Assembly (NCBI GenBank): GCA_007376385.1
Contig: VMGC01000002.1
Coordinates: 64,001-128,000 of the forward strand
Length of the DNA: 64,000 bases
Direction of reading: 5' to 3'
Origin: Parcubacteria group bacterium Gr01-1014_8
GTDB taxonomy: Bacteria; Patescibacteriota; Minisyncoccia; Phycocordibacterales; UBA2100
The notes below the pieces were generated by a model, which was given only the letters and a program-made list of their open reading frames with translations, did not search any database and was not told where the DNA came from. The stretch's first letter is position 1; each line of letters opens with the position of its first letter. Shown here in pieces: positions 1,729-50,210 of the stretch. Both the position numbers and the translations under genes were made by a program.

Positions 1729-1775
1729 ATGTACTCATTTTCATGTCCGAGCCGGGGAGCCAAAACAGGGTCGAG
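1729..1775 (+). repeat. Conserved ~40-nt element, copy 1: hairpin gaaaatg-tact-cattttc followed by the box TCCGAGCCGGGGAGCCAAAA
   Basis: Same element at 13437-13478 and 50171-50210. Consensus: GTA(A)CTCAyTTyc..TTCCGAGCCGRGGAGYCAG.AAA. Confidence 0.6.
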
Positions 1776-1940
1776 TGCCCTTTATCTGCTATGATGTTTC
1801 GTTATGACCCGGTAGTAGAATTTCGGCTTGTCTTGTCTAAATCGAATAACACAATTAATCTATATATTCAAAGATGACCCTATGACGTTTTTACGACCAC
1901 GACCTGCGCGTCGCGCCAGCCGAAATTCCACTAACCGGGT

Positions 1941-2534
1941 ATGACATGGGTGATCGTTGGCCTCGGAAATCCAGGAGAGGAGTATGAGCATACTCGCCAC
2001 AACACCGGCAGAATGGCTGTCCAGCACTTTGTGCGCTCAAAAAAGATAGGTGAGTGGAAAGAAGATGCAAAAGCGAAGTCGCTTGTCGCGCGAGGCATGG
2101 TTGAACGCTCGCTCGCCGCGTTCGTGTTGCCTGAAACGTTCATGAACAAGTCGGGAGGCGCGCTCACGAAATTCGTAAAGAGCATGAAAGCAGCAGAAAA
2201 TCTCGTTGTGGTCTACGATGAGCTTGATCTGCCTCTTGGAGCGATGAAAATTTCGTATGACCGTGGTAGCGGTGGACACAAAGGCATTGAATCCATCATG
2301 CGTGCAGTCAAAACGAAAAAATTCTGGCGCATTCGCATCGGTGTTTCGCAGTCTACGGCTGGAGGAGAGATAAAAAAACCTCACGGCGGCAAAGCGGTGA
2401 ACGATTTTATACTTGATATATTCAAACCGCACGAACACGCGGTTCTAAAGACCGTATTCAAGCGCGTCGAGAACGCACTCGAAAGTATCATCGTCGACGG
2501 ACCTGAGAGAGCGATGAATCAGTTCAATTCATAA
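1941..2534 (+). CDS. pth: Peptidyl-tRNA hydrolase
   Basis: N-terminal 'WVIVGLGNPGEEYEHTRHNTG' Pth signature; 197 aa. Confidence 0.9.
   Translation: MTWVIVGLGNPGEEYEHTRHNTGRMAVQHFVRSKKIGEWKEDAKAKSLVARGMVERSLAAFVLPETFMNKSGGALTKFVKSMKAAENLVVVYDELDLPLGAMKISYDRGSGGHKGIESIMRAVKTKKFWRIRIGVSQSTAGGEIKKPHGGKAVNDFILDIFKPHEHAVLKTVFKRVENALESIIVDGPERAMNQFNS
2455..2534 (+). repeat. Direct repeat 1 (native pth 3' end); a diverged second copy is at 3775-3851
   Basis: About 75% nucleotide identity over ~78 bp. The copies encode FKRVENALESIIVDGPERAMNQFNS and FKRVEHALETIILDGGMKAMNQFN. Confidence 0.7.
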
Positions 2535-2539
2535 AGCTC

Positions 2540-2992
2540 ATGAGCGAGCAAAAACGTGGCCGCGATAAAACTCCGCCGTTGTCGTTGAAAACGGTACTTA
2601 AAGAAGGAGACATTCTTCTCGAAACATGGCTGGATGCACATCACAAACAATTTCTCGGAAAGGTTGAAATCGAACCGCACGAGGATTTTCATTATCTTCG
2701 TGATACGGAAAGTTTAGTTACAACGAAAGGAATTGCGGGCGTTATGATCGATACGGTGAATCGTTTCCTTGAATCCGAAAAGAAAATAGGACTCCTTACG
2801 GAAGTAATAAGTCCTGATTCTCAGTACGCAAACGGTATGTATGAGCGGCGCGGTTGGAAACGCGTCCATCCGCACATGGCCGTACTGGTATACGTGCCGA
2901 ATGGTCTTAAAACCCCGTCGGCATCTGAGGCATTCGCAATGCGGCGAACGGTGCGTTATTTTGCTCGCCGTTGGCCCAATGCTTCTGATTGA
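2540..2992 (+). CDS. Hypothetical protein inside the pth-tail-flanked insert; weak GNAT-like C-terminal motif (..IGLLTEVISPD..ANGMYERRGW)
   Basis: 150-aa ORF directly after pth. No firm motif. Confidence 0.35.
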   Translation: MSEQKRGRDKTPPLSLKTVLKEGDILLETWLDAHHKQFLGKVEIEPHEDFHYLRDTESLVTTKGIAGVMIDTVNRFLESEKKIGLLTEVISPDSQYANGMYERRGWKRVHPHMAVLVYVPNGLKTPSASEAFAMRRTVRYFARRWPNASD

Positions 2993-3025
2993 ACGACTTA
3001 AGCAACAGGTTTCAGAGTCATCCGA

Positions 3026-3050
3026 ATGTCCGAGGTTCGACCTCGGACAT
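3026..3050. repeat. REP-like 25-nt palindromic hairpin atgtccgagg-ttcga-cctcggacat (left flank of the RAYT gene)
   Basis: 10-bp stem with 5-nt loop. It is the exact reverse complement of the element at 3736-3760. Confidence 0.8.
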
Positions 3051-3057
3051 GTTGTGC

Positions 3058-3735
3058 TTAATCGGTATTAAGCTTGTATGCAAGCCACTCATTTATGTGC
3101 TTTTTGAATTCGGAAGGTGTTGAGAAATATTCCGGCATCGCTTTAGCGTCAATCAGCTTATTTTCAGGACGTTCCACTCCCGAAAAATCGAGATAGCTTG
3201 AATAAGGATACCTTTCTAGAGATTTTAAATTCGCGAGAGCAGACAAAGTCTCCTTTTCAAACGTCTTCGTAAGTGCGACTGGATTCAGATGCACGTACGC
3301 TATGAGGTATTTGAGATACCGATCATCTTTTGCATGAACGGCTTTGAATTTTCCTTGAAGGAGTGCTCCGTTGCGTTCATGTCGTTTGTTGAAATACATC
3401 GTATAGCCTGTTATGACTTTCTGCATGAATTTACTTATCCCGCCCACGCCAATTTCTCGGAGTATCAGGTGAAAATGATTTGGCATGAGGCAATACGCCG
3501 CGACGTCCACAAGTGGAGAGCCACGCGGCAGTTCCAAAGCTTCACGCAGTGAGTATCTACTTAGCCGTTCATCGAGCCGTTCTTCCTGGTTGCAGGAATA
3601 AAGGAGGGTTAGGAACCGCTCATAGTCACCGCGTGAGCTAAAAATCGAGCGCTTCTCGGTTCCCCGATTGTAGACATGATATATCTCATCGCTTGCGAAC
3701 TCTATTTGCCGTGTCACCCGGTGATTATAAAACAA
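3058..3735 (-). CDS. REP-associated tyrosine transposase (RAYT) / IS200-IS605 TnpA-like HUH Y1 transposase
   Basis: 'CLMPNHFHLIL' HuH motif and a C-terminal 'YLIAYVHLNP' tyrosine region. Flanked immediately on both sides by inverted REP hairpins. Confidence 0.8.
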   Translation of the reverse strand: MFYNHRVTRQIEFASDEIYHVYNRGTEKRSIFSSRGDYERFLTLLYSCNQEERLDERLSRYSLREALELPRGSPLVDVAAYCLMPNHFHLILREIGVGGISKFMQKVITGYTMYFNKRHERNGALLQGKFKAVHAKDDRYLKYLIAYVHLNPVALTKTFEKETLSALANLKSLERYPYSSYLDFSGVERPENKLIDAKAMPEYFSTPSEFKKHINEWLAYKLNTD

Positions 3736-3760
3736 ATGTCCGAGGTCGAACCTCGGACAT
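3736..3760. repeat. REP-like 25-nt hairpin atgtccgagg-tcgaa-cctcggacat (right flank of RAYT; inverted copy of 3026-3050)
   Basis: Seen directly. Starts 1 nt upstream of the RAYT start codon. Confidence 0.8.
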
Positions 3761-3774
3761 TGTGGATAAAATAG

Positions 3775-3851
3775 TTTTCAAGCGCGTCGAGCATGCGCTT
3801 GAGACAATTATCCTCGATGGCGGAATGAAAGCGATGAATCAGTTCAACTAG
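3775..3851 (+). pseudogene. Diverged duplicate of the pth 3' coding end (direct repeat 2), ending in TAG
   Basis: Aligns to pth 2455-2534. No upstream pth body, so it is a displaced gene tail. Confidence 0.65.
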
Positions 3852-3898
3852 ATATCCAGAGCGGCAAGATCATGTTGTTTCTGTGCAATAATAAACGC

Positions 3899-4336
3899 AT
3901 GGCGGATCCGTCAGAACAAATGCGACCAAATTATCTGCGTCCAGATCCGGAGCTTGAGATAAAGCAGACTCCTGATGAGTGGGGAGTCTTTTTGGCAACG
4001 AGATCTTTTAATGATATTAAGAGTAGATTCGAATTAGAGATTGGCAACATTGAACGCCGAATTAGTGGTGCAGAGGAAGACATGCGTAATCTCTCAGGAA
4101 AATCAGATGATGTTTCAAGAAAATGGCGTGAATACTCTATGCAAACACTGCAGAGTTGTTTAAACGAAGTAATTCCGGCACGTCTGCCGGGTTTTCAGAG
4201 AGGCGTGGATAGAGTCAATGCACGTCAAGAATTTACCGAACTGCAAAAGGAAGAGATTGCGGCAATCGTCGATAGGCTAAAAATAGCTCGTGGCCAAGCT
4301 GAAAGCGCACTAGCGAAATTTACGCTACCGGCTTGA
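3899..4336 (+). CDS. Hypothetical protein (start taken at MADPSEQ)
   Basis: ORF only; no recognisable motif. Confidence 0.35.
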   Translation: MADPSEQMRPNYLRPDPELEIKQTPDEWGVFLATRSFNDIKSRFELEIGNIERRISGAEEDMRNLSGKSDDVSRKWREYSMQTLQSCLNEVIPARLPGFQRGVDRVNARQEFTELQKEEIAAIVDRLKIARGQAESALAKFTLPA

Positions 4337-5534
4337 GCGTCATCCTTCGCTCCTTGGGTTCGAAGAGCGTGATAGAGAACGGATACACTTTGCCGAGCTC
4401 TAATTTTGCGCGAAGTTCTGCTTCGTCCTTGAATTCAGAGACGTGTACGAGTCCTGCAACGCCTTCTTCGATAGATGCAAGAGCGCCATGCTTGTTGTAT
4501 TTGATGATGACCGCATTCACCGTCTGATCTTTTTTATACTGTGCAGCGGCAGATTTCCACGGGTCGTCGGTGAGCGCCTTTATGGAGAGGGATACTTTAT
4601 CGTCTTTTATCTCGATGACCTTTACATTCACTTTCTCGCCGACTTTGTAGCGAGTTTTAGGATTCTCAACGAGCGCCCAATCCATTTCTGAGATGTGCAC
4701 CAATCCCTCTAAGCCTTCTTCGAGTTTTACGAATACGCCGAAGTCTGTTGCGCCAGTCACGATGCCTTCAAGCGTATCGCCGACGTGATATTTCTCAACA
4801 AGGGAGGAGCGCTCCGTGCTTCCTGCGCCCTTCTCGCTGAAAATAAGTTTTTGTTCTTTCGGATTTGCGGTAATGATGAGAACTTCCAGGCGCTGGCCGA
4901 TAAGTTTTTTCAATTCCACGAATATCTTGTCCTTATCTCCATCCGGCACTCGCGGATAGTGCGCAGGTGCGAGCTGGGAAGCAGGAAGAAATCCCTGCAA
5001 GCCGTTCCAGGCGATGATGAGACCTCCCTTGTTTGCATCAGTGATGGGAAGTTCGAGCACTGTTTTCTTTTGCGATGCTGTTTCCGCCTCGTTCCAGATG
5101 AGCGCTTGGCGCGCTTCGCGGAGAGAGAGCTCAATGTAACCTTCAGTGTTGTCGCTTCCAACGACCTTAGCTGTAACAGTGTCTCCGATGTGAACGTTCT
5201 TGAGAGCCTCTCGTGCAGAGAGGTATTCACGGCCGTAGATAATGCCTGTCCCGAATGGGTGGAGGTCAACGAACACGCGCGCGCGGCCCACCGCAATAAC
5301 GGGTCCTTCGACAACGTCATCATTTGCAGGAGGTTTAGGCGCGCTCTCCATGAGCTCAGCCATCGGGCCCTGCTTTGCTGCCGCTACTGCTTCTTCTTCA
5401 ACGTCTTCGAGCTCTTCCTTTTCCTTAACTTCTTTTATTGCTGTGACCATCGTTGTGTCAGCTGTGGGTACTTCCGCTCCTTCCGTGTCTGTCGCCGAGA
5501 TTTTCTTGACGGCACTCCGTCTTAGAAAATCCAA
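4320..5534 (-). CDS. rpsA: 30S ribosomal protein S1 (four S1 domains, short form)
   Basis: Repeated S1 domains (..GxVxGxVxxIxxFGxFVxL..), e.g. 'GLVHISEMDW', 'GLVHVSEF'. Confidence 0.8.
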   Translation of the reverse strand: MDFLRRSAVKKISATDTEGAEVPTADTTMVTAIKEVKEKEELEDVEEEAVAAAKQGPMAELMESAPKPPANDDVVEGPVIAVGRARVFVDLHPFGTGIIYGREYLSAREALKNVHIGDTVTAKVVGSDNTEGYIELSLREARQALIWNEAETASQKKTVLELPITDANKGGLIIAWNGLQGFLPASQLAPAHYPRVPDGDKDKIFVELKKLIGQRLEVLIITANPKEQKLIFSEKGAGSTERSSLVEKYHVGDTLEGIVTGATDFGVFVKLEEGLEGLVHISEMDWALVENPKTRYKVGEKVNVKVIEIKDDKVSLSIKALTDDPWKSAAAQYKKDQTVNAVIIKYNKHGALASIEEGVAGLVHVSEFKDEAELRAKLELGKVYPFSITLFEPKERRMTLKPVA

Positions 5535-5712
5535 GTGTAGTCGCGCAGCGAGCTACTGTGAGGCGGGTGAGTATAAACCCAAGCGTCCTATTAACTAGTA
5601 ATTAAAAATGCCCCTTGGGGCGTCGAGCACTATATATTGTATTAAACTTTGTTGCAAGAGGATGATGCCGCGAGAGTCAACGGATCGCTAAGAAACTGCT
5701 ATAATCCCGACC

Positions 5713-6348
5713 ATGATTCTTACCTACCACGAGGGGGGATGCATCCGAGCGAGTGCGGGCGATACAACTCTTGTTTTCGGGCCGGTCTCGAAGCAATCGA
5801 AAAATTTCAAGCCGACGAGTTTCGGTGCGGATGTTGCGTTCATTTCCGTGAACCATCCCGATATGAATGGCGCAGAAGAAGCCGGCCGCGGCGAGAAGCA
5901 GCCGTTCATCATCGCGGGCCCCGGCGAGTATGAGGTGAACGGCATCATCGCGGCCGGATTTTCGTCGAGATCGAAATATGACCTGTCCGGTCAGGGAGGC
6001 AGAGACCGTATCAATACAATATATGCCGTGGATTTTGATGGACTTTCTGTTCTTTACCTTGGCGCAGAATCAGAATCTGACATGCCGAAGGAGCTTCTTG
6101 AAATGGACGCGCCCGATATCCTCATTACGCCGATAGGAGGGTCAGGCGTTCTTTCTGCCGCCGATGCGCAAAAGCTGGCAGTGAAACTTGAAGCAAAAAT
6201 AGTCATTCCGATCTTCTTTGATGCAAAAACGCTGAAGACATTCCTAAAAGAGGCTGGTTCCGAAGGTGTAAAGCCGGTAGACAAACTGACGCTCAAGTCA
6301 AAGGACGTTGCCGGCAAGGAAAATGAGGTCGTCGTCTTGAGTGCATAA
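5713..6348 (+). CDS. Metallo-beta-lactamase-fold hydrolase (UPF0173-like)
   Basis: About 210 aa. N-terminal 'LTYHEGGCIRASAGDTTLVFGP' resembles MBL-fold UPF0173 proteins. Confidence 0.45.
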   Translation: MILTYHEGGCIRASAGDTTLVFGPVSKQSKNFKPTSFGADVAFISVNHPDMNGAEEAGRGEKQPFIIAGPGEYEVNGIIAAGFSSRSKYDLSGQGGRDRINTIYAVDFDGLSVLYLGAESESDMPKELLEMDAPDILITPIGGSGVLSAADAQKLAVKLEAKIVIPIFFDAKTLKTFLKEAGSEGVKPVDKLTLKSKDVAGKENEVVVLSA

Positions 6349-6766
6349 ACCGAGCGGTACGTCGCTAAAAGTGTGGCAAAATGGAGATATCCGTTTCTAC
6401 GGCTCGCACTCTATGGTAGTTCAAAAAGCAATCGCTAACTTAAAGGATAAATCGAAGGATGAAAAAAAGGCCGTCGCGAGCGGCATTGCGATCGGCGTTG
6501 TTGCGATCCTTCTAATTGGGTGGGGATTTCTTTTTGTGAAAAAAATCCAGCAGGGCGGAAAGATGAATCTCGGCGGCGGCAGACAGGCAGAGTTCGATTT
6601 TTCGAGTGTTCGTGATGCGCAGGAGCAGTTGAAGCAAGGCATTAATGCTACACAGGATGAGTTGCGGGCGATCCGCGAGTCTGCTGTATCAAATCAAGCG
6701 CCGACCGAACAGCAAGTGGACCCGTATACTCCAGAAGACCAGTTTGGCACGGATGGTTCGTTGTAA
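6341..6766 (+). CDS. Hypothetical membrane-anchored protein
   Basis: Single TM segment (GIAIGVVAILLIGWGFLFV); no motif. Confidence 0.35.
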   Translation: MHKPSGTSLKVWQNGDIRFYGSHSMVVQKAIANLKDKSKDEKKAVASGIAIGVVAILLIGWGFLFVKKIQQGGKMNLGGGRQAEFDFSSVRDAQEQLKQGINATQDELRAIRESAVSNQAPTEQQVDPYTPEDQFGTDGSL

Positions 6767-6995
6767 GTGCTCGACAAGTGGGTGGAGAGGTATCTAATTA
6801 GACGCGGAGGGAGAACACGCCTTGAGCGTGGGTTCTGGATCGTCTGCTCGTGGATGCGTCTAACGCGCCGACTTGCAGATACATTCAGAAATAATCCCTA
6901 CTGAGGGGCTCACGGATCTGGTCTTGCCGTGAGCCTTTCTCCCTATAAAAAAAGCTCCCAAAAAGAGGGATTTTGTGATACAATTTCGCTGATAT

Positions 6996-9509: not shown

Positions 9510-9523
9510 TTTACGCGCGTTCC

Positions 9524-10141: not shown

Positions 10142-10156
10142 GGTATACTGATTGCA

Positions 10157-10729: not shown

Positions 10730-10743
10730 TATCATAAAAAATC

Positions 10744-12042: not shown

Positions 12043-12141
12043 CCCCATGAGAGAAATACTTTCGATATACCTATGAACATGATTGAACAGATCTACATGT
12101 GGGAGACAACAAAACATTCAAGCAGTCTCTCTCACGGGGTA
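12043..12141. repeat. Inverted-repeat pair unit U0, variant form: ACCCCATGAGAGA ... 71 bp ... TCTCTCACGGGGTA
   Basis: Right arm ends at the ATG of pilin gene 1 (12141). Confidence 0.55.
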
Positions 12142-13199: not shown

Positions 13200-13420
13200 A
13201 AATCACGTATTCGTGCACGCCCATGAACCAATTTTGGTTTTTGACAACCAGATCTAGCGCGTAAGAAATGTAAAGGTGTATGCCATGTCAGCGAACCCGA
13301 GGCGTATTCGAAACGATCGGCCGAACCAAAATTTGGTGCTGGGTTATCCACACAGAACCGACCTTGGCGCCTTTTTGCGCTATCAGGGGGATACAATAAG
13401 ACTACTTACTGGCGACGTAA
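13200..13420 (+). pseudogene. Possible remnant of a deleted pilin paralog: a duplicate of the pilin-4 leader followed by a 12-nt match to the pilin-3 3' end (ggatacaataag), with no pilin body
   Basis: 13215-13350 aligns to 13530-13665 (gcccatgaaccaaYtttgg ... ggccRaaccaaaRtttggtgcKgggttatc). Confidence 0.35.
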
Positions 13421-13436
13421 GGCGAGAGAAACGACA

Positions 13437-13478
13437 GTGTAACTCACTTTCGTTTCCGAGCCGAGGAGCCAGCAAAAA
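13437..13478 (+). repeat. Conserved ~40-nt element, copy 2 (gtgtaactcactttcgtttCCGAGCCGAGGAGCCAGcaaaaa)
   Basis: See copies at 1729 and 50171. Confidence 0.6.
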
Positions 13479-13529
13479 TATTTTTTTACCAAGTCAACTT
13501 ATTGATATTTACTATGAGCGCACGACCTG

Positions 13530-18219: not shown

Positions 18220-18380
18220 ATGTGGGCAAATATAGCAGAGATTATTTGTTTTTGCGCGTCTGCCCGGTGAGTGAATTTCGGCTTGCGCGAAGCGCGTCGC
18301 GGTCGGCAGAACTGAATATTTACCTCGTTGAGGGGACAGGTTAATTATGTTGTGCAGTCTGAACAAGACAAGTCGAAATT

Positions 18381-18710
18381 CTACTTCCGGGTCAGTTCAT
18401 CTATTCGCTGTCGATTTTCTTCCCCAATATCAAGCACAAAATCGACGGTGGGAACGTTCATTAAAACCGTCTTTGCTTTCAAAAAATCGTGAAAGTCGGT
18501 TCGCACGCGCTTAAGGAACGCGATGGCATCTCCTTGCTGCTCCTTCGGAAGCACCGAAACGAATATCGACACATTTTTTAGGTTGGGGGAAATGTCTGCA
18601 CGGGTCACAGTGATGAGAGATTTGCGGTTTGATTCTCGAGCGATGAAGTCAGCTGCGTGGTGCGCCATCGCTTCGGCAACTTTAATTTGTCGGCGGGACG
18701 GAGCGTTCAT
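18381..18710 (-). CDS. rbfA: Ribosome-binding factor A
   Basis: 109 aa, 'R..RV.E.....a..i..e..d.....vTvt.v..s.Dl..a.if' pattern. Confidence 0.75.
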   Translation of the reverse strand: MNAPSRRQIKVAEAMAHHAADFIARESNRKSLITVTRADISPNLKNVSIFVSVLPKEQQGDAIAFLKRVRTDFHDFLKAKTVLMNVPTVDFVLDIGEENRQRIDELTRK

Positions 18711-27427: not shown

Positions 27428-27887
27428 CATACACCACCCCAGCTCCTGTCTTCCCGATTTGTTTGATCTTGCCTTCCCTTTTGAGGATGGTGAGGTACCG
27501 CGTGGCGGTGGCATCGGAAACATGCAGGAGTTTCTCTACCTCGTCGTTCGTTATCTTTCCGCTCGCAGTCAGTGTTTCCAATATCATGTCTAGTTTCTTT
27601 CGTTTCCGGATCTGCGTTTTTTCGTGTGCTTTCTTCAACAATTCCGGCTTCGGGTCTGCGGGGGCAACAATCGGCTCATTTGTAGGGGTAAACGGCTCAA
27701 CGACCGGTCGTTGAGCCGTTTGGGCTTCAGCTGGAATTGCATCTACTGGCTCTGGAATCGTGATTTCCGGCGCAGGCGGCGCAGGTTCTGGCACTGCAGC
27801 TGCAGTAGGAATTTCTGGAGCGGATTGCGGTTCCACCGGCGGCGCAGGCGGTTCAGGCACTGAGGGAGGCGGCGTATCATCTGCCAT
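27417..27887 (-). CDS. Proline-rich protein with a C-terminal winged-HTH DNA-binding domain
   Basis: PEPPAPP-type N-terminus; C-terminal 'ITNDEVEKLLHVSDATATRYLTILKREGKIKQIGKTGAGVVY' resembles a DeoR/MarR-like wHTH. Confidence 0.45.
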   Translation of the reverse strand: MADDTPPPSVPEPPAPPVEPQSAPEIPTAAAVPEPAPPAPEITIPEPVDAIPAEAQTAQRPVVEPFTPTNEPIVAPADPKPELLKKAHEKTQIRKRKKLDMILETLTASGKITNDEVEKLLHVSDATATRYLTILKREGKIKQIGKTGAGVVYVRE

Positions 27888-40035: not shown

Positions 40036-40109
40036 ACTCTCAAGGGGTTGCCCCCGAACGATTTTGAGTCGTTTGCGTATACCATTTCGCCATTCCGGCA
40101 ATCTTGGCA
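40027..40109 (-). tRNA. tRNA-Leu (anticodon CAA), class II
   Basis: GCCGGAATGGCGAAATGG...actCAAaa...long variable arm...GAGTTCAAGTCTC...TCCGGCA. Confidence 0.8.
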
Positions 40110-40154
40110 AGTGTACAGTCCTTTCGGATTTAATTCAAAACCTGCGGTGATATA

Positions 40155-41153
40155 ATGCTTCTCATGGACGATTTCAAAGACAAGGCATATTTCAGCGACT
40201 CTATCTATTGGGTCGAAGTGGACCGCATAAAACCAAATCCATTCCAGCCTCGCAAAGAATTTGATGAGACGGCACTTGCGTCTCTTGCCGAATCTGTCCG
40301 TCAGTATGGCATTTTGCAGCCGCTTGTCGTAACACGAAAAGAGATCGAACGCCCCGGCGAAGGCATTTTCGTTGAATACGAGCTTATAGCTGGCGAGCGG
40401 CGACTGCGTGCGGCTAAACTTGCGGGACTCATTCAAGTGCCCGTGGTTGTAAGGCGTGCAGAAGACAGCGACAGAATGAAGCTTGAGCTCGCCATTATCG
40501 AGAATCTTCAGCGAGAAGACCTAAACGCGATAGATAGGGCAAAGGCGTTCAAACGGCTCGTAGACGAATTTGGTTTAAAGCACGGCGAGATAGGGAAGCG
40601 CGTCGGGAAAAGCCGGGAATACGTATCAAACACGCTTCGAATTCTTTCACTGCCGCAGGAGATGCAGGACGCGCTTCAGGCAGGTGAGATTACAGAGGGT
40701 CACACGAGACCTCTGTTGATGTTGATAGACAGACCAGAAGAACAGCGGACACTGTTCAAAGAAATAATCGCGCGCCGGCTGACCGTCCGCGACACGGAAC
40801 AATTAGCACGAAGAGTGGCCATAGAAAAGGTGCGGAAAACAGATCAGCTTTCGCCGGATCTCATGAACCTGGAGCGTCAGTTGACCGAACGATTGGGAAC
40901 GCGCGTACGTATCGAGAAAAAAGAACAAGGGGGAAAAGTCACGATAGATTTTTTCTCACCGGAAGACCTGGCGCATTTGTGTTTGGTCCTGGCGTCCCAA
41001 GAAAGAACGAAGGAAAAAGAAGAAAAAGAAACAGACATGCCAGAAGCGAGTGCAAAACCAGGTACACTGGCACAGACAGCTGAACCGGTCGTTACACACT
41101 CTACAGAAAGCCCGCCAGAAGATCTCTACTCAGTGAAAAACTTCACCGTTTAA
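40155..41153 (+). CDS. parB: Chromosome partitioning protein ParB/Spo0J
   Basis: ParB box 'GILQPLVVT....YELIAGERRLRAAKLAG'. No parA adjacent. Confidence 0.85.
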   Translation: MLLMDDFKDKAYFSDSIYWVEVDRIKPNPFQPRKEFDETALASLAESVRQYGILQPLVVTRKEIERPGEGIFVEYELIAGERRLRAAKLAGLIQVPVVVRRAEDSDRMKLELAIIENLQREDLNAIDRAKAFKRLVDEFGLKHGEIGKRVGKSREYVSNTLRILSLPQEMQDALQAGEITEGHTRPLLMLIDRPEEQRTLFKEIIARRLTVRDTEQLARRVAIEKVRKTDQLSPDLMNLERQLTERLGTRVRIEKKEQGGKVTIDFFSPEDLAHLCLVLASQERTKEKEEKETDMPEASAKPGTLAQTAEPVVTHSTESPPEDLYSVKNFTV

Positions 41154-41241
41154 TATTGTTTTGCGGTCTTCATAAGGAATACCATAATGGTGCCGGTCGG
41201 CACCATTATGGTACGAGTATAAAAAACGGCGTCACGATCAG

Positions 41242-42771: not shown

Positions 42772-42836
42772 ACGCTCTAAATAGTACGCTTGTCGCTTGT
42801 GTTTGAAAAGCTCTCCATTTGCAACGCAGAGTGAAT

Positions 42837-45002
42837 TTACTTCGCGAGTTTGTGCGGGTTATGCATTAGACATGATTTGTTACTGCAGCGTTCTGGGATA
42901 GTCTTAGTTCCTTGCATCATCAGTGATCCGCACTCGGGGCAAAGTTTTCCTGTCGGCCTGGCTTTAATCGCGTTTTTGCAATCAGGATAATTCGAGCATG
43001 AAAAGAAAGGCCCGAATTTTCCGCGGCGCTCCACCATTTCTCCTTTTTTGCACACAGGACACGCCACGCCCGTCTTACTCTTTGCCTCTTCGATCGGATC
43101 TTTTCTCACGAATTTGCATTTCGGATAATTACTGCATGCGATGAATCGTCCGAAGCGGCCTTCACGCTCCATCAGTTTTCCGTCTTTACATTCAGGGCAA
43201 GTTTCGCCGATATCTTTTGGCGGCGCAATTTCGCCTCCATCTTCTTTGCGCGCTCCCAGGCATTTGGGGAATTTCGCGCAACTCATAAAGCGCCCAGTGC
43301 GAGACAGTTTGTATACCATTAAGCCGCCGCATATCGGGCAGGGGAATTCAGCAGGTGCGGGACCCATATTTGTTAATTTCTCAATTTTGTCTTTTGCTTT
43401 TACTGCTTTTTTGAACGGAGAGTAGAAATCTTTTAGTGTTTTTTCATACTCTCGCTTTCCATCTGCGATCTCGTCGAGTTCATTTTCCATTTCGGCGGTA
43501 AATGTATCGCTGATGTATTCGGTAAAGTGCTCTTCAATGAACGAGCTTACCACGTCGCCGGTATGGGTTGGAACAAGTGTGCGGCCTTGTTTCTCGACGT
43601 ATCCGCGATTCTCCAGCGTCGAGATAATTGACGCATAGGTCGAAGGCCGTCCGATACCACGTTTTTCCAGTTCTTTCACCAATCCGGCTTCGCTATATCT
43701 CGGAGGTGGTTGTGTTTCTTTTTCCTCTGTGTTTGCTTTTACGAGCTTCAATGCATCGCTTTTTGCTACCTTTGGAAGTTGTACCTCTTCTCCGCGTGCC
43801 TCGGGGTCAGCCTTGAGCCATCCTTCAAAGAGTACGCGCGAACCGTTTGCAGCAAAATGCGGGACGGTGTCGCCTTCAACATTTGCAGTTATTTTTGTGC
43901 GAAGGACTTTTGCGTCTGTCATCTGGCTCGCCAAGGTGCGTGCGCGGATGAGCTGGTACAGCTTTTTTTGGTCGTCGGTCGTTCCAGCGGACGCCTTGTG
44001 CATATTCGTCGGCCGAACTGCTTCGTGGGCCTCTTGAGCAGATTTGCTTTTTGACTTGTATGCCCGCACTTCTACGTACTCTTTGCCAAAATCGCTTTCA
44101 ACAACATGTGCGATCTGCTCCACCGCCTCCTTTGCAAGACTCGGAGAATCCGTACGCATGTAGGTGATGTGTCCGACTTCATACAGTTTCTGTGCTGTTC
44201 GCATCGTTCGAGATGGCGAGAAGCCAAGCCGCGTCGAAGCGACCTGCTGCAGGGTTGATGTCGTGAACGGCGCGCGCGGAACTCTTTTTTGTTCCGATTC
44301 TTCGATGTCCACGACATGCCACGCCTTTGTGTGCGCCTCATCAAAAATTCGTTTCGCCTCCTTCTCGTCGCGCGGTTCTTCGCTGCAAATAACGGTAAAC
44401 GGTTCATCCTTCATTGTTTTGACCTCTGCGCTAAGCACCCAGAATTTTTCCGGAATAAATGCGCGTACTTCGCGCTCCCGCTCCATGAGTATGCGCAGCG
44501 CAGGGGATTGGACGCGACCAGCTGAGAGGCCGTAACGCACTTTTTTCCACACTAATCCCGAGAGGTCGTATCCAAACAATCTGTCGAGTACGCGTCTTGC
44601 TTCTTGCGCTTTGCGCAGGTTCTGGTCGATGAGTCGCGGATGAGCGAGTGCTTCTTGAACAGCATGTTCGGTTATCTCGTTGAATACGATGCGTTTTGGT
44701 TTTTTGAGTCCGATGGTCTCTGCCAAGTGCCATGCGATGGCCTCTCCTTCTCGGTCGGGGTCGGTCGCAAGGATGACCTCATCGGCACGGCCTGCGATCT
44801 CGTGCAAACCGTCAATCACGTGCTGCTTCTCTTTTACTATCTGGTAGCGCGGAATAAAACCGCCCTCGATATCAACGGCGTCCTTGTTGCTTTTCGGCAG
44901 ATCGCGGATATGCCCGACCGACGCGCGGACGGTGAATCCTTTTCCCAGATATTTTTCAATTGTCTTGGCTTTCGCCGGAGACTCAACAATTACCAATTTC
45001 AT
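42837..45002 (-). CDS. topA: DNA topoisomerase I
   Basis: TOPRIM 'LVIVESPAKAKTI', Tyr region 'HITYMRTDS', C-terminal Cys4 zinc ribbons. Confidence 0.9.
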   Translation of the reverse strand: MKLVIVESPAKAKTIEKYLGKGFTVRASVGHIRDLPKSNKDAVDIEGGFIPRYQIVKEKQHVIDGLHEIAGRADEVILATDPDREGEAIAWHLAETIGLKKPKRIVFNEITEHAVQEALAHPRLIDQNLRKAQEARRVLDRLFGYDLSGLVWKKVRYGLSAGRVQSPALRILMEREREVRAFIPEKFWVLSAEVKTMKDEPFTVICSEEPRDEKEAKRIFDEAHTKAWHVVDIEESEQKRVPRAPFTTSTLQQVASTRLGFSPSRTMRTAQKLYEVGHITYMRTDSPSLAKEAVEQIAHVVESDFGKEYVEVRAYKSKSKSAQEAHEAVRPTNMHKASAGTTDDQKKLYQLIRARTLASQMTDAKVLRTKITANVEGDTVPHFAANGSRVLFEGWLKADPEARGEEVQLPKVAKSDALKLVKANTEEKETQPPPRYSEAGLVKELEKRGIGRPSTYASIISTLENRGYVEKQGRTLVPTHTGDVVSSFIEEHFTEYISDTFTAEMENELDEIADGKREYEKTLKDFYSPFKKAVKAKDKIEKLTNMGPAPAEFPCPICGGLMVYKLSRTGRFMSCAKFPKCLGARKEDGGEIAPPKDIGETCPECKDGKLMEREGRFGRFIACSNYPKCKFVRKDPIEEAKSKTGVACPVCKKGEMVERRGKFGPFFSCSNYPDCKNAIKARPTGKLCPECGSLMMQGTKTIPERCSNKSCLMHNPHKLAK

Positions 45003-45333
45003 ATCAATTTATTTTCTGAAGCGCCTTTGCCGGCCTGTCCCGTTAGACACGAAGCTGTCTAACCGAGACGATCCTACTATTACAAGCTTCATACGAGCAC
45101 GATTGATATCCTAGAAGCCTAACACGTGTCAAGCGGATGTAATAAAAATGTTATTGACTCTCAGTGATATTTATATGAGTCTGGACGCAAGCAAGGGGAA
45201 GGAGGTGCGCAGTGTACAGGATCTTCTTGCTGGTTCGGTTGCTCTCCTTTTCGGGGGAAGTTACTTCAACGTGGGAGATCGATCTTCCGCCGAACGCTGA
45301 GTTTCCGCTCTGCATGCCTCCATGCAGCGCGTC

Positions 45334-46194
45334 CTAAATCGCACGAACCAATCCAAGCGTTTCCTGAATTAACCCTTTTATCTCCATCGTTGAAAGCAGA
45401 ATATTTGCTTCAGAAATAGACATTTCTAACTGAGATAGTAGTTCGTCGCGTGAGCAGGGCGAGGATAGTATTTCCAGCACTTTGCGCTCATCTGAAGACA
45501 AATCTTCTCGCAATGACGGACTTACGATGTCGGTCATTTCGATGCCGAGCGCTTTCAAGATGTCCTCGGGTTCCGTTACTGGCGTTGCGCCGAGTTTTAA
45601 AAATTGATGCGTTCCGCGGCTTTCGGCGCTGAAGATAGAGCCCGGAACGACTAACAACTCCCGATTATATTCGGTCGTAAGCCGCGCGGTGATAAGGGAG
45701 CCAGAACGCTCTTTTGCCTCGATGACCAGAGTCGCCAGGCATAATCCGGCCATGATGCGATTCCGCTGTGGAAATGTGTGATCGGCGGCTTTTTGCTTCG
45801 GCTCAAATTCTGACAACAAAGCTCCGCCCGCTTTTAAGATTTCTCGAGCCAGCCCAACATGCGCTCTAGGATAGATGACGTCCCAATCGAGACCAGACCC
45901 AGGGACTGCAACAGTGGGGAGTCCGGCGGAAAGGGCCGCTTTGTGAGCACATGCGTCTATGCCATAGGCGAGCCCCGACACGATGACGATCGGGTAGCCG
46001 CGGAGACCCCCTATTAGATGTTCGCACGCCTGTCGTCCGTAGGAACTTGCGGCGCGAGAGCCGACCACTGCGAGCCATACGTCGTCGTAACGGGGAAGCT
46101 CTCCCCGGACATACAATTGTTTCGGCGGGTCCGATATTTCGGCTAATAGAGGGTGGAAATGAGCTGCTTTGAGTTGGCGTAACGTGTCACTCAT
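45334..46194 (-). CDS. dprA: DNA processing protein DprA (Smf)
   Basis: 'VVGSRAASSYG', 'IVSGLAYGIDACAHKAAL', 'ERSGSLITA'. Start taken at MSDTLRQ. Confidence 0.8.
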   Translation of the reverse strand: MSDTLRQLKAAHFHPLLAEISDPPKQLYVRGELPRYDDVWLAVVGSRAASSYGRQACEHLIGGLRGYPIVIVSGLAYGIDACAHKAALSAGLPTVAVPGSGLDWDVIYPRAHVGLAREILKAGGALLSEFEPKQKAADHTFPQRNRIMAGLCLATLVIEAKERSGSLITARLTTEYNRELLVVPGSIFSAESRGTHQFLKLGATPVTEPEDILKALGIEMTDIVSPSLREDLSSDERKVLEILSSPCSRDELLSQLEMSISEANILLSTMEIKGLIQETLGLVRAI

Positions 46195-46210
46195 TGTACT
46201 ATCTATTGTA

Positions 46211-46274
46211 TACCCCGTGAGATAAACAGGTCTGACCTTCAACAGGAAAGCGGATGTGCATATCTCATGGGGTA
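46211..46274. repeat. Inverted-repeat pair unit U5 (TACCCCGTGAGATA ... 36 bp ... TATCTCATGGGGTA), half-length spacer, in the divergent dprA / serS intergenic region
   Basis: Seen directly. 16 nt from the dprA ATG and 32 nt from the serS ATG. Confidence 0.65.
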
Positions 46275-46306
46275 TGCCGTTATTTCCGGCGCTTCCCTTT
46301 AGACCT

Positions 46307-47578
46307 ATGCTTGACATCAAATTCATCCGAGAAAACAAAGATATTGTTGCGGCAGGCGCGCGGAAGAAGCATATAGATGTCGATATAGACAGACTTCTTC
46401 AGCTTGACGATAAACGCAGAGAGCTTCAACAGGCGCTGGAAGCTAAGAGGGCCGAGCAGAACAATGCATCAAATGCGATAGCAGGCGCAAAAAATGATAG
46501 AGAGCGGCAGGAGCTTATTGCTCGAATGCAGCAAGTCAAAGAGACGATGAAAATGGAAGAAACATCACTTGAGGAAATATTAAAAGAATGGCGAGCCTTG
46601 ATGGTGCGGGTTCCGAACGTTCCGGATATCTCAGTCCCTGATGGTGACAGCGATGCGGATAATAAGGAAGTAAAGAAGTGGGGAGAGGCAGCTGAATTTG
46701 AGTTTGAGCTGAAAAATCATTCCGAATTGATGTTGATGCATGACATGGCCGATCTTGAGCGAGGCGCAAAAGTTGCAGGCTTCAGGGGATATTTCTTGAA
46801 AAACGATGGGGCACGATTGGTGTGGGCCTTAGAAAGATTCGTACAAGATAGATTCATGAACCGCGAGGGGTTTGTTCCTGTCGTTGTTCCTTCCATGGTT
46901 CGTCGAGAGCCTTTTATCGGCACCGGATATTTGCCCCAGAGCGAAGAGGATCTGTATAAAACGCAAGATGGTGACTATCTTGCGGGTACCGCGGAAGTTG
47001 CCGCTATGGGATATTACATGGACGAAATAGTTGATAAAAGATTGCTGCCGATAAAATTCTTTGCATTCTCTCCGTGTTTTCGCCGTGAAGCGGGGAGTCA
47101 CGGCAAAGACACGAAAGGACTCTTTCGGATCCATGAGTTCGTGAAATACGAGCAGGTAGTCTTATGCGAGGCGAATCATGAAGAATCCGTGCGTCACCAC
47201 GAGGAGTTAACGGCGAATTCGGAAGCTCTCCTGCAGGAATTGAAATTGCCGTATCGCGTTGTGCTGAACTGCGGGGGGGACATAGGTCTCGGGCAAGTAA
47301 AAAAGTACGACATCGAAGCATGGATGCCGTCGGAGAAAAAATATCGCGAGACGCATTCATCATCGTATTTTCATGATTTCCAATCTCGGCGATTGAATAT
47401 TCGTTATCGAGATGATGACGGGACGCTTAAATTCGTCCATTCTTTGAATAACACAGCGCTCGCGATGCCGCGCATCCTCTGCCAAATAGTCGAGAACAAC
47501 CAACACTCTGACGGTTCAATATCAATTCCGGAGGTGCTCCGGGGCTACGTGGGAAAAGATGTGATATCCAAGCACTAA
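46307..47578 (+). CDS. serS: Seryl-tRNA synthetase
   Basis: N-terminal coiled-coil 'MLDIKFIRENKD', class II motifs ('FRREAGS', 'GTGYLP'). Confidence 0.9.
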   Translation: MLDIKFIRENKDIVAAGARKKHIDVDIDRLLQLDDKRRELQQALEAKRAEQNNASNAIAGAKNDRERQELIARMQQVKETMKMEETSLEEILKEWRALMVRVPNVPDISVPDGDSDADNKEVKKWGEAAEFEFELKNHSELMLMHDMADLERGAKVAGFRGYFLKNDGARLVWALERFVQDRFMNREGFVPVVVPSMVRREPFIGTGYLPQSEEDLYKTQDGDYLAGTAEVAAMGYYMDEIVDKRLLPIKFFAFSPCFRREAGSHGKDTKGLFRIHEFVKYEQVVLCEANHEESVRHHEELTANSEALLQELKLPYRVVLNCGGDIGLGQVKKYDIEAWMPSEKKYRETHSSSYFHDFQSRRLNIRYRDDDGTLKFVHSLNNTALAMPRILCQIVENNQHSDGSISIPEVLRGYVGKDVISKH

Positions 47579-47676
47579 TTTTGCCATTTTATTCGCTGAA
47601 CGATCCGGTTGCGAATGTGGCGGGTTTATAAAGGGAGACGTTATATAGAGAAAATAACCGGACACATATAGAAGCC

Positions 47677-48564
47677 ATGGCAAAATTTAGTGGGGGACCA
47701 TTACGTCGACTAAGCGTTCGTAGAAATTTGCCAACAGCAATACGCAGACGGCCTGTCTCCGGTCAGCTTGCGCTGGCGTTCCGGCCAAGGGAGAGGCTCG
47801 CCAGGCGCAGGCGCCGTGCGCGACTGCGCCTGGCGTTCATAGTGTTCTTATCGATCGCAGGTCTTGGGTGGGGAGCAGGGTTCCTTTCTTATAACGATAG
47901 ATTGACAATTCAAGACATACAGATATCTGGTACATCGGCACTATCGACGCGAGTGGTACAAGCCGCTTTCGAAGCGAATTTATACGATGGAGCGTACCAT
48001 TTTCTCTCTCGTGAAAATATTTTTCTGTACCCAAAGGGAACGTTAGCCGCAGAACTGAAAGAAGAGTTGCCACGCCTTAAAAGTGTTTCAATATCACGCG
48101 AGTCACTTCTTGCGCAGGCGGTTAAAGTGACCGTCGAAGAAAGGGGTGCGCAGTATGTGTGGTGCAATAGTGAGAGCTGTTACGTGATGGATTCTGACGG
48201 GTTTATCTTTGCTCCAGTCGATAATGCCACCACCGAATATACGTTTAGAGGCGGTTTGGCGGGAAATTCCTCGCCAGTCGGGCAGACATTTCTCCGCGGG
48301 AGGTTAAATAACATTGTGGAACTCTTTAAACGTCTCGATGAAGCAGGTTACAAAGCGACCGGAGCAACCGTGGAGAACGAGAAGGATTACCGCGTTCTGC
48401 TCGGAAAGGGATTTTCATTGAAAGTGACCTTTGATTCCGAACCGCACGAGGTAGTCCGAAATTTAGAGTTGATTCTTGATTCCGATGCGATTAAGGATGA
48501 CCTTGAAAAACTCGACTATGTGGATTTACGGTTCGGCAATCGCGTATACTACCAGCTACGATAG
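47677..48564 (+). CDS. FtsQ/DivIB-like cell division protein (TM anchor + POTRA)
   Basis: Arg-rich N-terminus, one TM segment, then 'IQDIQISGTSALSTRVVQAAF' POTRA-like start. No ftsA/ftsZ adjacent. Confidence 0.45.
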   Translation: MAKFSGGPLRRLSVRRNLPTAIRRRPVSGQLALAFRPRERLARRRRRARLRLAFIVFLSIAGLGWGAGFLSYNDRLTIQDIQISGTSALSTRVVQAAFEANLYDGAYHFLSRENIFLYPKGTLAAELKEELPRLKSVSISRESLLAQAVKVTVEERGAQYVWCNSESCYVMDSDGFIFAPVDNATTEYTFRGGLAGNSSPVGQTFLRGRLNNIVELFKRLDEAGYKATGATVENEKDYRVLLGKGFSLKVTFDSEPHEVVRNLELILDSDAIKDDLEKLDYVDLRFGNRVYYQLR

Positions 48565-48567
48565 CGT

Positions 48568-49122
48568 ATGACAGATCATCAAGGCGGGCGCGGAAACGGA
48601 AATGGCGAGAAAAAGGGGGAACTCACATCGAGCGATGTGTTTGCGGCTCGGCGCGAACTTCAGGAAAAGCAGCGGAAAATAGCATCACAGCAAAGGGATG
48701 AAAAAGCAGCAAGAGAAAAGCACGACAAACTTCAAGGAGAAAAAGTCAGTATCGGATTGGATAATTCTGCACTTGTGTGGCGGGTGAAGGATGAAACTGA
48801 AAAGTTTCTCAAAGAAAACGAATGGAAAATTATTCCTGAAATTGACGCTGCGCGGGATCGATTTGATAAGCAACTCGTTATCAGACAGTTCGGCGGCCCG
48901 GCCGTATCGGCCAGATCTGGACGATTTGCCCCGGTACTTGTGACTTTCTTTGGCGATGCGGATGATTCTCCAGCTGGGGTTGAAAAAAGGCGTGTTCTCA
49001 AGAATTGGATAGGGAATAAGTACGCGGGCATAGAAGGTAATGAGTGGCCAATTGTTGTCGATACGAGAGCAGATTACGAAGTGTACATAGAGTGGCAGCC
49101 GAAAGAGAGGCCCGCAGGCTAA
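48568..49122 (+). CDS. Hypothetical protein
   Basis: ORF only. Confidence 0.3.
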   Translation: MTDHQGGRGNGNGEKKGELTSSDVFAARRELQEKQRKIASQQRDEKAAREKHDKLQGEKVSIGLDNSALVWRVKDETEKFLKENEWKIIPEIDAARDRFDKQLVIRQFGGPAVSARSGRFAPVLVTFFGDADDSPAGVEKRRVLKNWIGNKYAGIEGNEWPIVVDTRADYEVYIEWQPKERPAG

Positions 49123-49125
49123 ACG

Positions 49126-50160
49126 TTGCTCGTCTCTCGTGTTATCGTGCGCAAAATGAAAAACTTCTGGGACACATTGCCGCGCCCTTTTTTCATACAG
49201 GCGCCGATGGAGGATGTGACGGACGCCGCTTTTCGGCGTCTCATCGCACGTTATGGCAAACCGGATGTGATGTTCACAGAGTTCACTTCAGCGGATGGTC
49301 TCGTTCTTGCACCACCTTCAGGACAGAAGATACTGCGGAAAAAGTTGGCGTTTGATGAGAGCGAGAGGCCTGTTGTTGCGCAATTATTTAGCGCGATGCC
49401 GGAGCGTATGGAAAAAGCTGCGGAATTGATAACCGAACTCGGATTCGACGGACTCGATATAAATATGGGTTGTCCAGTGGATGAGGTCGTGAAAAGCGGG
49501 GCAGGGGCCGCACTCATCAACGACCACGAGCTTGCGAGAGAGTTGGTTCGCGCGGCTGACCGAGGGCTCCGATCCGCCGGCCGGCGGATGCCTATCTCGA
49601 TAAAAACACGGATCGGGTATCGCGAAAATGAGCTTGCGTCGTGGCTGCCCGTTCTTTTAGAAGTGGAACCGGCGATGGTGGCAATTCATGCTCGAACTCG
49701 AAACGAAATGTCTGCAGTGCCTGCCAGATGGGACACGGTGAAGGAGGCAGTTCATATTCGAGACCGGCTCGGCTCGAAGACTTTTATTGTCGGCAACGGT
49801 GACGTACGGGATATTTCTCACGCGCGGGAACGCATAAAAGAAAGCGGCGCCGATGGTGTGATGCTCGGGCGAGCTATTTACGGAAATCCTTGGTTGTATT
49901 CAGGCCGGACGGATGCACCGTCCCCGAAAGAGCGCATCAACGCGCTCCTTGAACACCTCTCACTATTCGAAGAATTGATGCAGGGGACAACGAACTATGC
50001 GACCATGAAAAAGCATTTCAAGGCGTACATTTCTGGCTGGCCTGCCTGCCGCGACGAGCACGGCGCAGGCAGGGACGGCGCGAAAGATCTGCGGGTGAGG
50101 CTTATGGAGACGGAAGCGATATCGCAAGCAAGAGAAATTCTTACTGGCGACGTAGAGTGA
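49126..50160 (+). CDS. tRNA-dihydrouridine synthase (Dus family)
   Basis: 'PFFIQAPMEDVTDAAFRRL', 'DINMGCPVDEVVKSGAGAAL'. Confidence 0.8.
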   Translation: MLVSRVIVRKMKNFWDTLPRPFFIQAPMEDVTDAAFRRLIARYGKPDVMFTEFTSADGLVLAPPSGQKILRKKLAFDESERPVVAQLFSAMPERMEKAAELITELGFDGLDINMGCPVDEVVKSGAGAALINDHELARELVRAADRGLRSAGRRMPISIKTRIGYRENELASWLPVLLEVEPAMVAIHARTRNEMSAVPARWDTVKEAVHIRDRLGSKTFIVGNGDVRDISHARERIKESGADGVMLGRAIYGNPWLYSGRTDAPSPKERINALLEHLSLFEELMQGTTNYATMKKHFKAYISGWPACRDEHGAGRDGAKDLRVRLMETEAISQAREILTGDVE

Positions 50161-50164
50161 GAGC

Positions 50165-50188
50165 AGAGAACATGTACTCATGTTCTCT
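50165..50188 (+). terminator. Perfect 10-bp-stem hairpin agagaacatg-tact-catgttctct, 5 nt after the dus stop; forms the 5' part of conserved-element copy 3
   Basis: Seen directly. Followed by a pyrimidine-rich tract. Confidence 0.5.
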
Positions 50189-50210
50189 TCCGAGCCGAGG
50201 AGTCAGAAAC
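50171..50210 (+). repeat. Conserved ~40-nt element, copy 3 (catgtactcatgttctcTTCCGAGCCGAGGAGTCAGaaac)
   Basis: See 1729 and 13437. Confidence 0.6.

Follow-up and report, generated by a model that had tools for sequence, protein, structure and literature searches.

A small mobile DNA element inserted after TTAC or TTAT in a Parcubacteria genome, with likeness to IS200/IS605 and REP elements

A short repeat found in the genome of Parcubacteria group bacterium Gr01-1014_8 is part of a mobile DNA element of approximately 80 nt, which is inserted after TTAC or TTAT at four sites of the stretch analyzed here (positions 64,001 to 128,000 of contig VMGC01000002.1, assembly GCA_007376385.1; these 64,000 nt are called the window and numbered from its first letter). 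It is probably a non-autonomous miniature insertion element of Parcubacteria/Kaiserbacteria-type bacteria of the candidate phyla radiation (CPR) that moves by single-strand transposition of the IS200/IS605 and repetitive extragenic palindromic (REP) kind. The nearest named relatives of the window organism are Kaiserbacteria. Loci and contigs used for comparison carry the prefix L.

Four copies of one unit

A sequence-only reading of the window had described three related stretches, at 1729-1775, 13437-13478 and 50171-50210. All three are present as claimed, and their box CCGAGCCGRGGAG occurs exactly three times on the plus strand; a search of the 64 kb with one mismatch allowed also finds it on the minus strand at 53375-53387, in a further copy that brings the total to four. 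The extents first given comprise only part of a hairpin, HP1, namely its apical stem and 3' strand, and the full unit is larger, with 80-83 nt (Table 1). Its conservation begins about 27 nt 5' of the start noted originally and takes the form TTAY-TGGCGA(C)G..GCGAGNGA, a variable hairpin and TCCGAGCCGRGGARYCAR-AAA, after which a second small hairpin, HP2, follows and the unit closes in TTTAY. A covariance model (R1) built from 18 copies was used to scan the window with filters off. It returned the four copies at E = 2e-22 to 1.6e-17, far beyond chance, since the next best hit in the 64 kb had an E-value of 1.3.

Alignment of the four copies separates two subtypes, one made up of copies 1 and 4 and the other of copies 2 and 3. 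Copy 1 lies in the spacer between the divergent genes lepB (minus strand) and pth (plus strand); its HP1 spans 1703-1765 and carries the variant 5' box GGCGAGCGTTGCGAG, and its HP2 consists of cAGGGtcgagtgCCCT followed by TTAT, ending at 1785. Copy 2 is located between two genes for small membrane or type IV secretion system (T4SS) pilin-like proteins. Both copy 2 and copy 3 are preceded by TTAC (13406-13409 and 50141-50144, respectively) and end in TTTAC, while copy 4, read on its own strand, is preceded by TTAT (53432-53435) and ends in TTCAT.

Table 1. Coordinates of the element copies and of the RAYT-like gene with its palindromes in the window
Feature	Position	Strand	Remarks
Flanking tetranucleotide TTAT of copy 1	1699..1702	+	Read from sequence; presumed target/left cleavage site
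Copy 1, 83 nt	1703..1785	+	71.4 bits, E = 5.5e-18
Copy 2, 80 nt	13410..13489	+	85.5 bits, E = 4.5e-22
Copy 3, 80 nt	50145..50224	+	86.7 bits, E = 2e-22; empty sites in L250, L251, L243
Copy 4, 81 nt	53351..53431	-	69.8 bits, E = 1.6e-17
RAYT-like Y1 (HUH) transposase gene, 225 aa	3058..3735	-	HUH motif HFH, Tyr motif AYVHLNP
25-nt palindrome ATGTCCGAGGTTCGACCTCGGACAT	3026..3050	.	7 nt past the stop of the RAYT-like gene
Inverted copy of the ATGTCCGAGGTTCGACCTCGGACAT palindrome	3736..3760	.	Directly upstream of the RAYT-like gene

Precise insertion at the dus-dnaX junction

Three syntenic contigs, reached through DnaX homologues, show the junction that harbors copy 3 in its empty state: in L243 (DnaX 78% identical) and in L250 and L251 (both 87%), dus and dnaX abut and the dus stop overlaps the dnaX start. 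The empty site of L251 and L250 reads ATTCTCAC|CAGTGATATAC, and the filled site of the window ATTCTTAC, 80 nt and CAGTGATATAC; over a longer distance, AAAATTCTCAC|CAGTGATATAC in L251 corresponds to GAAATTCTTAC, the element (TGGCG...CCAGTTTAC) and CAGTGATATAC in the window. A single T(C)AC tetranucleotide is present exactly at the junction in L251 and L250. The comparison of empty and filled sites identifies copy 3 as an exact insertion by which the final codons of dus were changed. It entered five codons before the ancestral stop, and the present C-terminus ...TGDVE* is encoded by the element; removal of the 80 nt at 50145-50224 restores the dus end ...EILTSDIPREI*, comparable with ...TVLDDILR* in the relatives. 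This also accounts for a terminator-like arrangement that had been proposed for copy 3: the dus stop precedes the hairpin by 5 nt because the element inserted into the end of dus.

At the level of aligned sequences, insertion is shown at one site, namely copy 3 at dus-dnaX, and other copies are likewise found at altered gene ends or in leaders. The last bases of copy 4 provide the TGA stop of a plus-strand cupin gene, which after removal of the element would end in ...DGITTE-TAA as read from the sequence. In L210, a copy is placed between a terminator resembling that of an S-adenosylmethionine (SAM) riboswitch and the start of metK, a site at which L187 has other sequence. For copy 1, comparison with L244 and L246 gave no clean junction, the lepB-pth spacer being rearranged relative to both. 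A comparison at rpsG-fusA (L043 with L204 and L177) was discarded, as the regions are not truly syntenic. Its side effects in these loci are of two sorts, namely altered ends of genes (dus, cupin) and copies placed in 5' leaders.

The interval between copy 3 and dnaX (50225-50323) contains about 95 nt that the relatives lack. The old dus end, found just upstream of the dnaX ATG as GGGGTATACTCC, is partially duplicated in it as CAGTGATATACCCC, and a 12-nt inverted repeat, CCCCGTGAGATA ... TATCTCATGGGG, delimits a further segment. The interval may represent a second rearrangement or insertion at this junction.

A large covarying hairpin on one strand

The element comprises a 65-nt imperfect hairpin, HP1, followed by the small and variable HP2. 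The basal stem of HP1, NNGC/GNNR, is realized as CTGGC/GYCAG, TTGGC/GCCAA, TTGAC/GTCAA and TAAGC/GYTTA in different copies. Two conserved internal loops, GACGTAGRGCGAGNGA on the 5' side and TCCGAGCCGAGGAG on the 3' side, hold most of the conserved bases, and the upper part is formed by a 2-bp GC/GC clamp, an apical stem of 12-14 bp and a variable loop. Approximately 25 conserved nucleotides of HP1, AGGAG among them, are unpaired. The hairpin with a 'tact' loop that was described earlier therefore exists, but only as the apical stem of this larger structure, and the box that had been regarded as devoid of an obvious structural role is the 3' strand of HP1, which pairs or stacks with the conserved 5' strand.

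RNAalifold predicted 21 base pairs from 18 sequences, 12 of them with compensatory double changes. In a 22-pair structure, 95.9% of the cells were paired; none of 500 shuffles was as good and no slid register came near. The stems of 110 unique metagenomic copies contain 78 G.T and 32 A.C oppositions, and this excess indicates that the fold forms on the strand as written and on one strand only, a property that extends across the family. HP2 has few base pairs in the window copies and elsewhere contains one to three nested GC-rich hairpins; through such extra hairpins, the length of the element increases from 80-83 nt in the window to about 300 nt. Subterminal hairpins are thus located on the same strand at both ends, HP1 being supported by covariation and HP2 being found in most copies.

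A search of the whole window against Rfam 15 at the gathering threshold retrieved tRNAs only and no match to the element. Region 1400-2000, which includes the segment 1450-1800 for which the sequence-only reading had suggested such a scan, gave no match, and a relaxed threshold of E <= 10 around copies 1 and 2 yielded nothing relevant. Several resemblances to known RNAs were considered and dismissed. A tRNA-like reading, with a CCA-like end and an anticodon-like loop, fails because the 'CCA' is one covarying strand of a stem and the loops differ between copies; a likeness to helix I and loop A of 5S rRNA, seen by eye, is not accompanied by a 5S match at E <= 10; and neither a kink-turn nor a hairpin ribozyme fits the register of the internal loops, where bases required as G.A by a k-turn are variable (GTAAGG, GTAGGG).

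Ends, target tetranucleotide and internal tract

When the flanks are aligned, conservation has sharp edges, starting at (T)TTAY and ending at TTTAY. Of 132 unique copies, 82 follow the tetranucleotide TTAT, 21 TTAC and 12 CTAY, so that YTAY precedes 115 of the 132; the element is TTAY-specific across the family. Between the two hairpins lies a purine-rich tract, which is GAAA in copies with TTAC and A-A/T-A-N in those with TTAT, and its first base after the basal stem (R) is complementary to the last base (Y) of the 5' tetranucleotide in 117 of the 132 copies. By inspection, the same tract can also pair with the terminal TTTAY as the foot of HP2. Terminal inverted repeats are absent, the ends TGGCGACG... 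and ...CCGGTTTAC being unrelated in reverse complement. Since the 3' end of the element is itself TTAY, a single site does not discriminate against a 4-bp duplication; in several copies, however, CTAY or TCAC at the left end contrasts with TTAY at the right, and this difference favors a target followed by the element's own end over a target-site duplication.

Distribution across genomes and metagenomes

Copies beyond the window number more than 150 in all and come from Parcubacteria/Kaiserbacteria-type MAGs, where labeled, and otherwise from metagenomes. One genome per species was scanned with a 17-mer of the box, a pattern so unspecific that most of the 120 loci listed are chance or coding matches; 13 of them are real and correspond to about 15 copies in about 11 metagenome-assembled genomes (MAGs) of CPR bacteria. 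These 13 loci are labeled Kaiserbacteria, Parcubacteria, Paceibacterota and 'Patescibacteria group', together with two 'Saccharibacteria' bins and one 'Gammaproteobacteria', which is probably mis-binned. A two-box pattern was present in at least 120 metagenome contigs, groundwater and sediment included, and the covariance model found 113 + 19 copies on metagenome contigs. Collections of viral contigs, plasmids and phages contained no copies. The copies with the same element core on these loci and contigs range from 26% to 61% in G+C content.

The window contains 4 copies in 64 kb, or about one per 16 kb. At this density about 6.6 copies would be expected in the roughly 106 kb available from the close relatives L241-L244, L246, L247, L250 and L251, in which none was found, and the element is accordingly patchily distributed.

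Gene context

Flanking open reading frames (ORFs) were called around 132 copies by a crude but uniform procedure. The upstream gene is co-oriented with the element in 51 cases and opposed in 48, the downstream gene co-oriented in 51 and opposed in 46, and the arrangements of both flanking genes are same/same in 30, opposite/opposite in 24, divergent in 16 and convergent in 13. The orientation of the element relative to its neighbors is random. The adjoining genes are unrelated to one another, and no conserved promoter signal was detected from -60 to -13 upstream of the copies.

Readings of the repeat as a terminator, a processing site or the start of a small RNA, all of which had been raised from the sequence, do not agree with the random orientation, the lack of a conserved promoter and the position of copy 4, which is antisense between two plus-strand genes, cupin and nirK. 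An intrinsic terminator or 3' untranslated region (3'-UTR) is also not what the copies resemble: copies 1 and 4 have no co-oriented upstream gene, and HP1 is followed by A residues, not U. As for a riboswitch or 5' leader, the downstream genes are divided as given above and represent no consistent functional class; the combination of a riboswitch with a terminator was rejected because of the random orientation. A protein-binding site, also proposed earlier, may hold in the sense of a recognition structure for a transposase or recombinase.

Copy 1 had further been suggested to delimit, with an upstream TTGACA-17-TGTATG promoter-like site, a non-coding RNA of about 250 nt. This site is kept in relatives that lack the element and therefore belongs to the lepB/pth spacer rather than to a 250-nt RNA terminated by the element. 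The lepB-pth spacers of L244 and L246 also contain the surrounding segment 1466-1545 (TTGACAC...GGTGTTGT(A/G)T, then GCACGGATATTTTTTTGCT), a conserved putative regulatory region that does not depend on the element.

Proposed mechanism and alternative explanations

Target specificity, ends that are not inverted repeats, hairpin formation restricted to one strand and an internal tract that can pair with TTAY together point to single-strand transposition of the IS200/IS605 type, for which we infer an HUH mechanism. Such a 'peel-and-paste' process of IS200/IS605/REP type would rely on a Y1 HUH transposase that is provided in trans and binds the folded top strand, and the cleavage and target tetranucleotides would be picked by pairing with the internal tract, in the manner of G_L/C_L in IS608. 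IS608 of Helicobacter pylori, which likewise lacks inverted repeats, inserts on the 3' side of TTAC and chooses this site through pairing between an internal guide and the cleavage site (PMC3201880, PMC5934647). Non-autonomous derivatives of the IS200/IS605 family, palindrome-associated transposable elements (PATEs), are a known class (PMC7290912). The element shares with these systems insertion 3' of a specific tetranucleotide (TTAC itself in copies 2 and 3), ends without inverted repeats and with hairpins on one strand, and a short internal tract complementary to the cleavage/target tetranucleotide, with an A.A opposition in the TTAC/GAAA type; it is likewise small and dispersed to many sites (PMC3201880, PMC5934647, PMC7290912). 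Its right end carries the target tetranucleotide, whereas that of IS608 is TCAA. A bias toward the lagging-strand template has been described for the IS200/IS605 family (PMC5027513). Of 42 loci with |skew| > 0.04, 29 have the element on the G-rich strand and 13 on the other, and three of the four window copies are also on the G-rich strand, local skew being a weak proxy; if the lagging-strand template carries the G-rich leading-strand sequence, as we presume, the direction of this bias would fit the IS200/IS605 expectation.

A number of observations weigh against transposition of this kind. The strand bias is weak, and TCAC rather than TTAC is found at the empty dus-dnaX sites. The foot of HP1 directly adjoins the left tetranucleotide, whereas the IS608 hairpin comprises about 22 nt and is set back 19 nt from the end; the tract follows HP1 on its 3' side, between the hairpins, instead of preceding it, and a single tract would serve both ends; and HP1, at 65 nt with about 25 bases conserved but unpaired, far exceeds the known recognition hairpins of Y1 enzymes in size. 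An AT-rich subtype lacks HP2 and occurs in tandem arrays, with three 81-nt units in L123 and two units in L178, the latter pair just upstream of rpmE as read from the downstream sequence. The near-invariance of the boxes in the metagenome loci L121-L240 is partly ascertainment and inflated, as these loci were picked with the boxes as search pattern; in the unbiased sets, the window and the genome loci, the 3' box is nearly constant and the 5' box more variable. No autonomous copy (HP1...transposase...HP2) is present among approximately 150 copies, no protein family is enriched within 1.5 kb of the copies, and a cognate Y1 TnpA with matching element ends was not found at the loci of the copies or in the window. 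Searches of all locus ORFs with phmmer, using IS608 TnpA and Escherichia coli RAYT queries, returned no match. Two further points concern the transposase-like gene of the window: its flanking palindrome differs from the element and is conserved with the orthologues in L245 and L247, and the relatives that bear such a gene (L245, L247, L248 and L249; 72 kb) have no HP1 copy, so that the presence of this transposase clade does not predict the element.

Several other explanations were weighed. We consider it unlikely that the element functions first of all as a structured RNA, be it a small RNA gene, a terminator or 3'-UTR module, or an mRNA site for processing or protein binding, with its spread as a secondary matter. 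The strong covariation, the preference for G-U pairs on one strand and the roughly 25 conserved unpaired nucleotides with AGGAG are what such an RNA would display, HP2 often forms an A-tract/hairpin/U-tract that could terminate transcription in both directions, and several copies are situated 12-27 nt upstream of start codons (rpsL, rpmE and adk by reading the downstream sequence). A single-stranded DNA hairpin, however, accounts equally for the covariation and the G.T pairs, and other features speak against the RNA reading: copies are precise insertions that disrupt gene ends, orientation is random and about 45% of the copies have no co-oriented downstream gene, a promoter at a fixed distance is missing, close relatives lack the element and it matches no Rfam family. 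Mobility of the hairpin by a non-HUH enzyme, for instance a tyrosine recombinase that acts on a folded site as in integron attC or CTX-phage-like systems with a crossover at TTAY|T, appears improbable. The layout of HP1 is attC-like (a basal stem with the crossover, conserved unpaired bases, a variable terminal stem-loop), the insertion point falls within a stem, and no matching Y1 transposase was found; the RYYYAAC/GTTRRRY boxes are nevertheless absent, copies are scattered over many TTAY sites with neither a single platform nor a cassette ORF, and no integrase occurs among approximately 45 ORFs scanned in the window, which is annotated in part.

A conventional miniature inverted-repeat transposable element (MITE) of the DDE type that duplicates a 4-bp TTAY target is very improbable, even though TTAY is found on both sides of most copies and a single tetranucleotide at the empty site. 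Its ends would be inverted repeats, and those observed are not (the 5' end is TGGCGACG and the 3' end, in reverse complement, GTAAACYGG). The TTTAY on the right belongs to the element, as it pairs within HP2, and several copies have a left tetranucleotide (CTAY or TCAC) that differs from the right one (TTAY). It is also doubtful, if conceivable, that the conserved unpaired bases of HP1 fold, as RNA or single-stranded DNA, into an active or guide-like structure beyond a handle for a transposase. Examples would be a self-processing nucleic acid or an RNA encoded by the element that acts together with a nuclease or recombinase specific to CPR bacteria; if true, this would represent hairpin-guided insertion without a described counterpart, in which a single internal tract selects both donor ends and target.

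Single-strand transposition remains the preferred explanation, and among known systems IS200/IS605 derivatives and REP elements are nearest in kind, the large left-end hairpin being the distinctive feature. Small structured repeats are also familiar from another reduced genome in the form of the Rickettsia palindromic elements (RPEs), which insert in frame inside genes and supply new codons. The element likewise supplies codons, at the dus and cupin ends, but it has no sequence relationship to RPEs, and its copies are found at gene ends and in spacers with a defined TTAY target.

A RAYT-like gene and comparison with REP systems

The only transposase-like gene in the annotated parts of the window, noticed through synteny with L245, encodes a protein similar to REP-associated tyrosine transposases (RAYTs; Table 1). 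An HUH motif, a catalytic tyrosine and a profile match place it in the Y1 HUH/RAYT family: it matches Pfam PF01797 (Y1_Tnp) just above the gathering score (24.1 bits with a cut-off of 23, E = 4.1e-5) and NCBIfam REP_Tyr_transpos (NF047646) at E = 4.3e-10, below the equivalog cut-off, and its profile has E. coli TnpA-REP (PDB 4ER8) as the best, weak match (E = 0.06). Its product is a candidate mobilizing enzyme for the element. The ATGTCCGAGGTTCGACCTCGGACAT palindrome occurs twice in the 64 kb, both times at this gene, and has at most TCCGAG(G) in common with the element. Gene and palindrome occupy the same syntenic site, between pth and the S1-domain gene, in L245 and L247, and are absent there in L244 and L246. 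The RAYT-like family is large in Patescibacteria, with 7182 matches at E <= 1e-10, and is found at conserved syntenic positions.

REPs and bacterial interspersed mosaic elements (BIMEs) resemble the element as intergenic hairpin repeats of high copy number that occur in both orientations and carry a GTAG motif. As in REP/RAYT systems, the genome also encodes a RAYT-like Y1 protein, and its gene has kept its syntenic position and lies between inverted palindromes; these palindromes, however, are not the dispersed element. Other differences lie in the length of HP1 (about 65 nt, compared with about 20-40 nt in REPs) and in the GTAG of the element, which is inside the first internal loop and does not precede a palindrome. 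REPs are usually species- or genus-specific, whereas the same element core is shared by CPR loci and contigs over the range of G+C content given above.

Repeats other than the element also accompany related genes. A RAYT-like paralogue in L245 (12261-12926) has its own, different palindrome, and in L187, at about 3540-3697 and downstream of its RAYT-like gene, a tandem 13-mer, TGAGTCCTTGATG, is present in about seven copies, followed by hairpins built on GAAACCGAAATCAAGG...CCTTGATTTCGG.

Other sequence features

Directly upstream of copy 1, an 18-bp perfect inverted repeat, GGTATTCCTCTCGCTGAA (1552-1569) and TTCAGCGAGAGGAATACC (1663-1680), encloses about 93 nt. This stretch (1552-1680) is missing from the lepB-pth spacers of L244 and L246, does not recur in the window or in the loci retrieved for comparison, and may itself be a further inserted hairpin element. 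A 32-nt repeat containing TAGAAT is located at 1805-1836, about 105 nt upstream of pth, and in reverse at 18363-18394, at the 3' end of rbfA and upstream of tRNA-Cys; the two copies are identical in 30 of 32 positions and may constitute a shared promoter. The metK leader conserved in L210 (1800-1925) and L187 (12410-12540), TCAAGAGCGCGGTGAGAGTTCTGGCTC...AAGGTGCCCCAACCAGCCC, looks by eye like a SAM-I riboswitch.

Beside the cupin gene, 53576-54871 encodes a two-domain multicopper oxidase, for which Pfam reports multicopper-oxidase/cupredoxin domains only and which we read as a NirK-type copper nitrite reductase. ParB is encoded at 40155-41153, and the GC skew keeps its sign throughout the window. 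A scan for inverted repeats revealed perfect 16-bp palindromes at 27690-27721 (AAACGGCTCAACGACC/GGTCGTTGAGCCGTTT, no gap) and at 41180-41213 (TACCATAATGGTGCCG..CGGCACCATTATGGTA).

Significance

The genomes of CPR bacteria (Patescibacteria) are tiny and usually described as poor in mobile DNA. With about one copy per 16 kb, absence from the sampled regions of relatives whose DnaX is 78-87% identical, and rewritten gene ends and leaders, the element marks recent genome change in this group. It is also a source of annotation artefacts in the form of false C-termini and spurious small ORFs, and the covariance model can be used to mask or to track it in CPR metagenomes. If the IS200/IS605-like reading is true, the element would offer a compact natural case of target choice by pairing with a single internal tract, and its unusually large and conserved left-end structure would make it a tractable substrate with which to identify its mobilizing enzyme.

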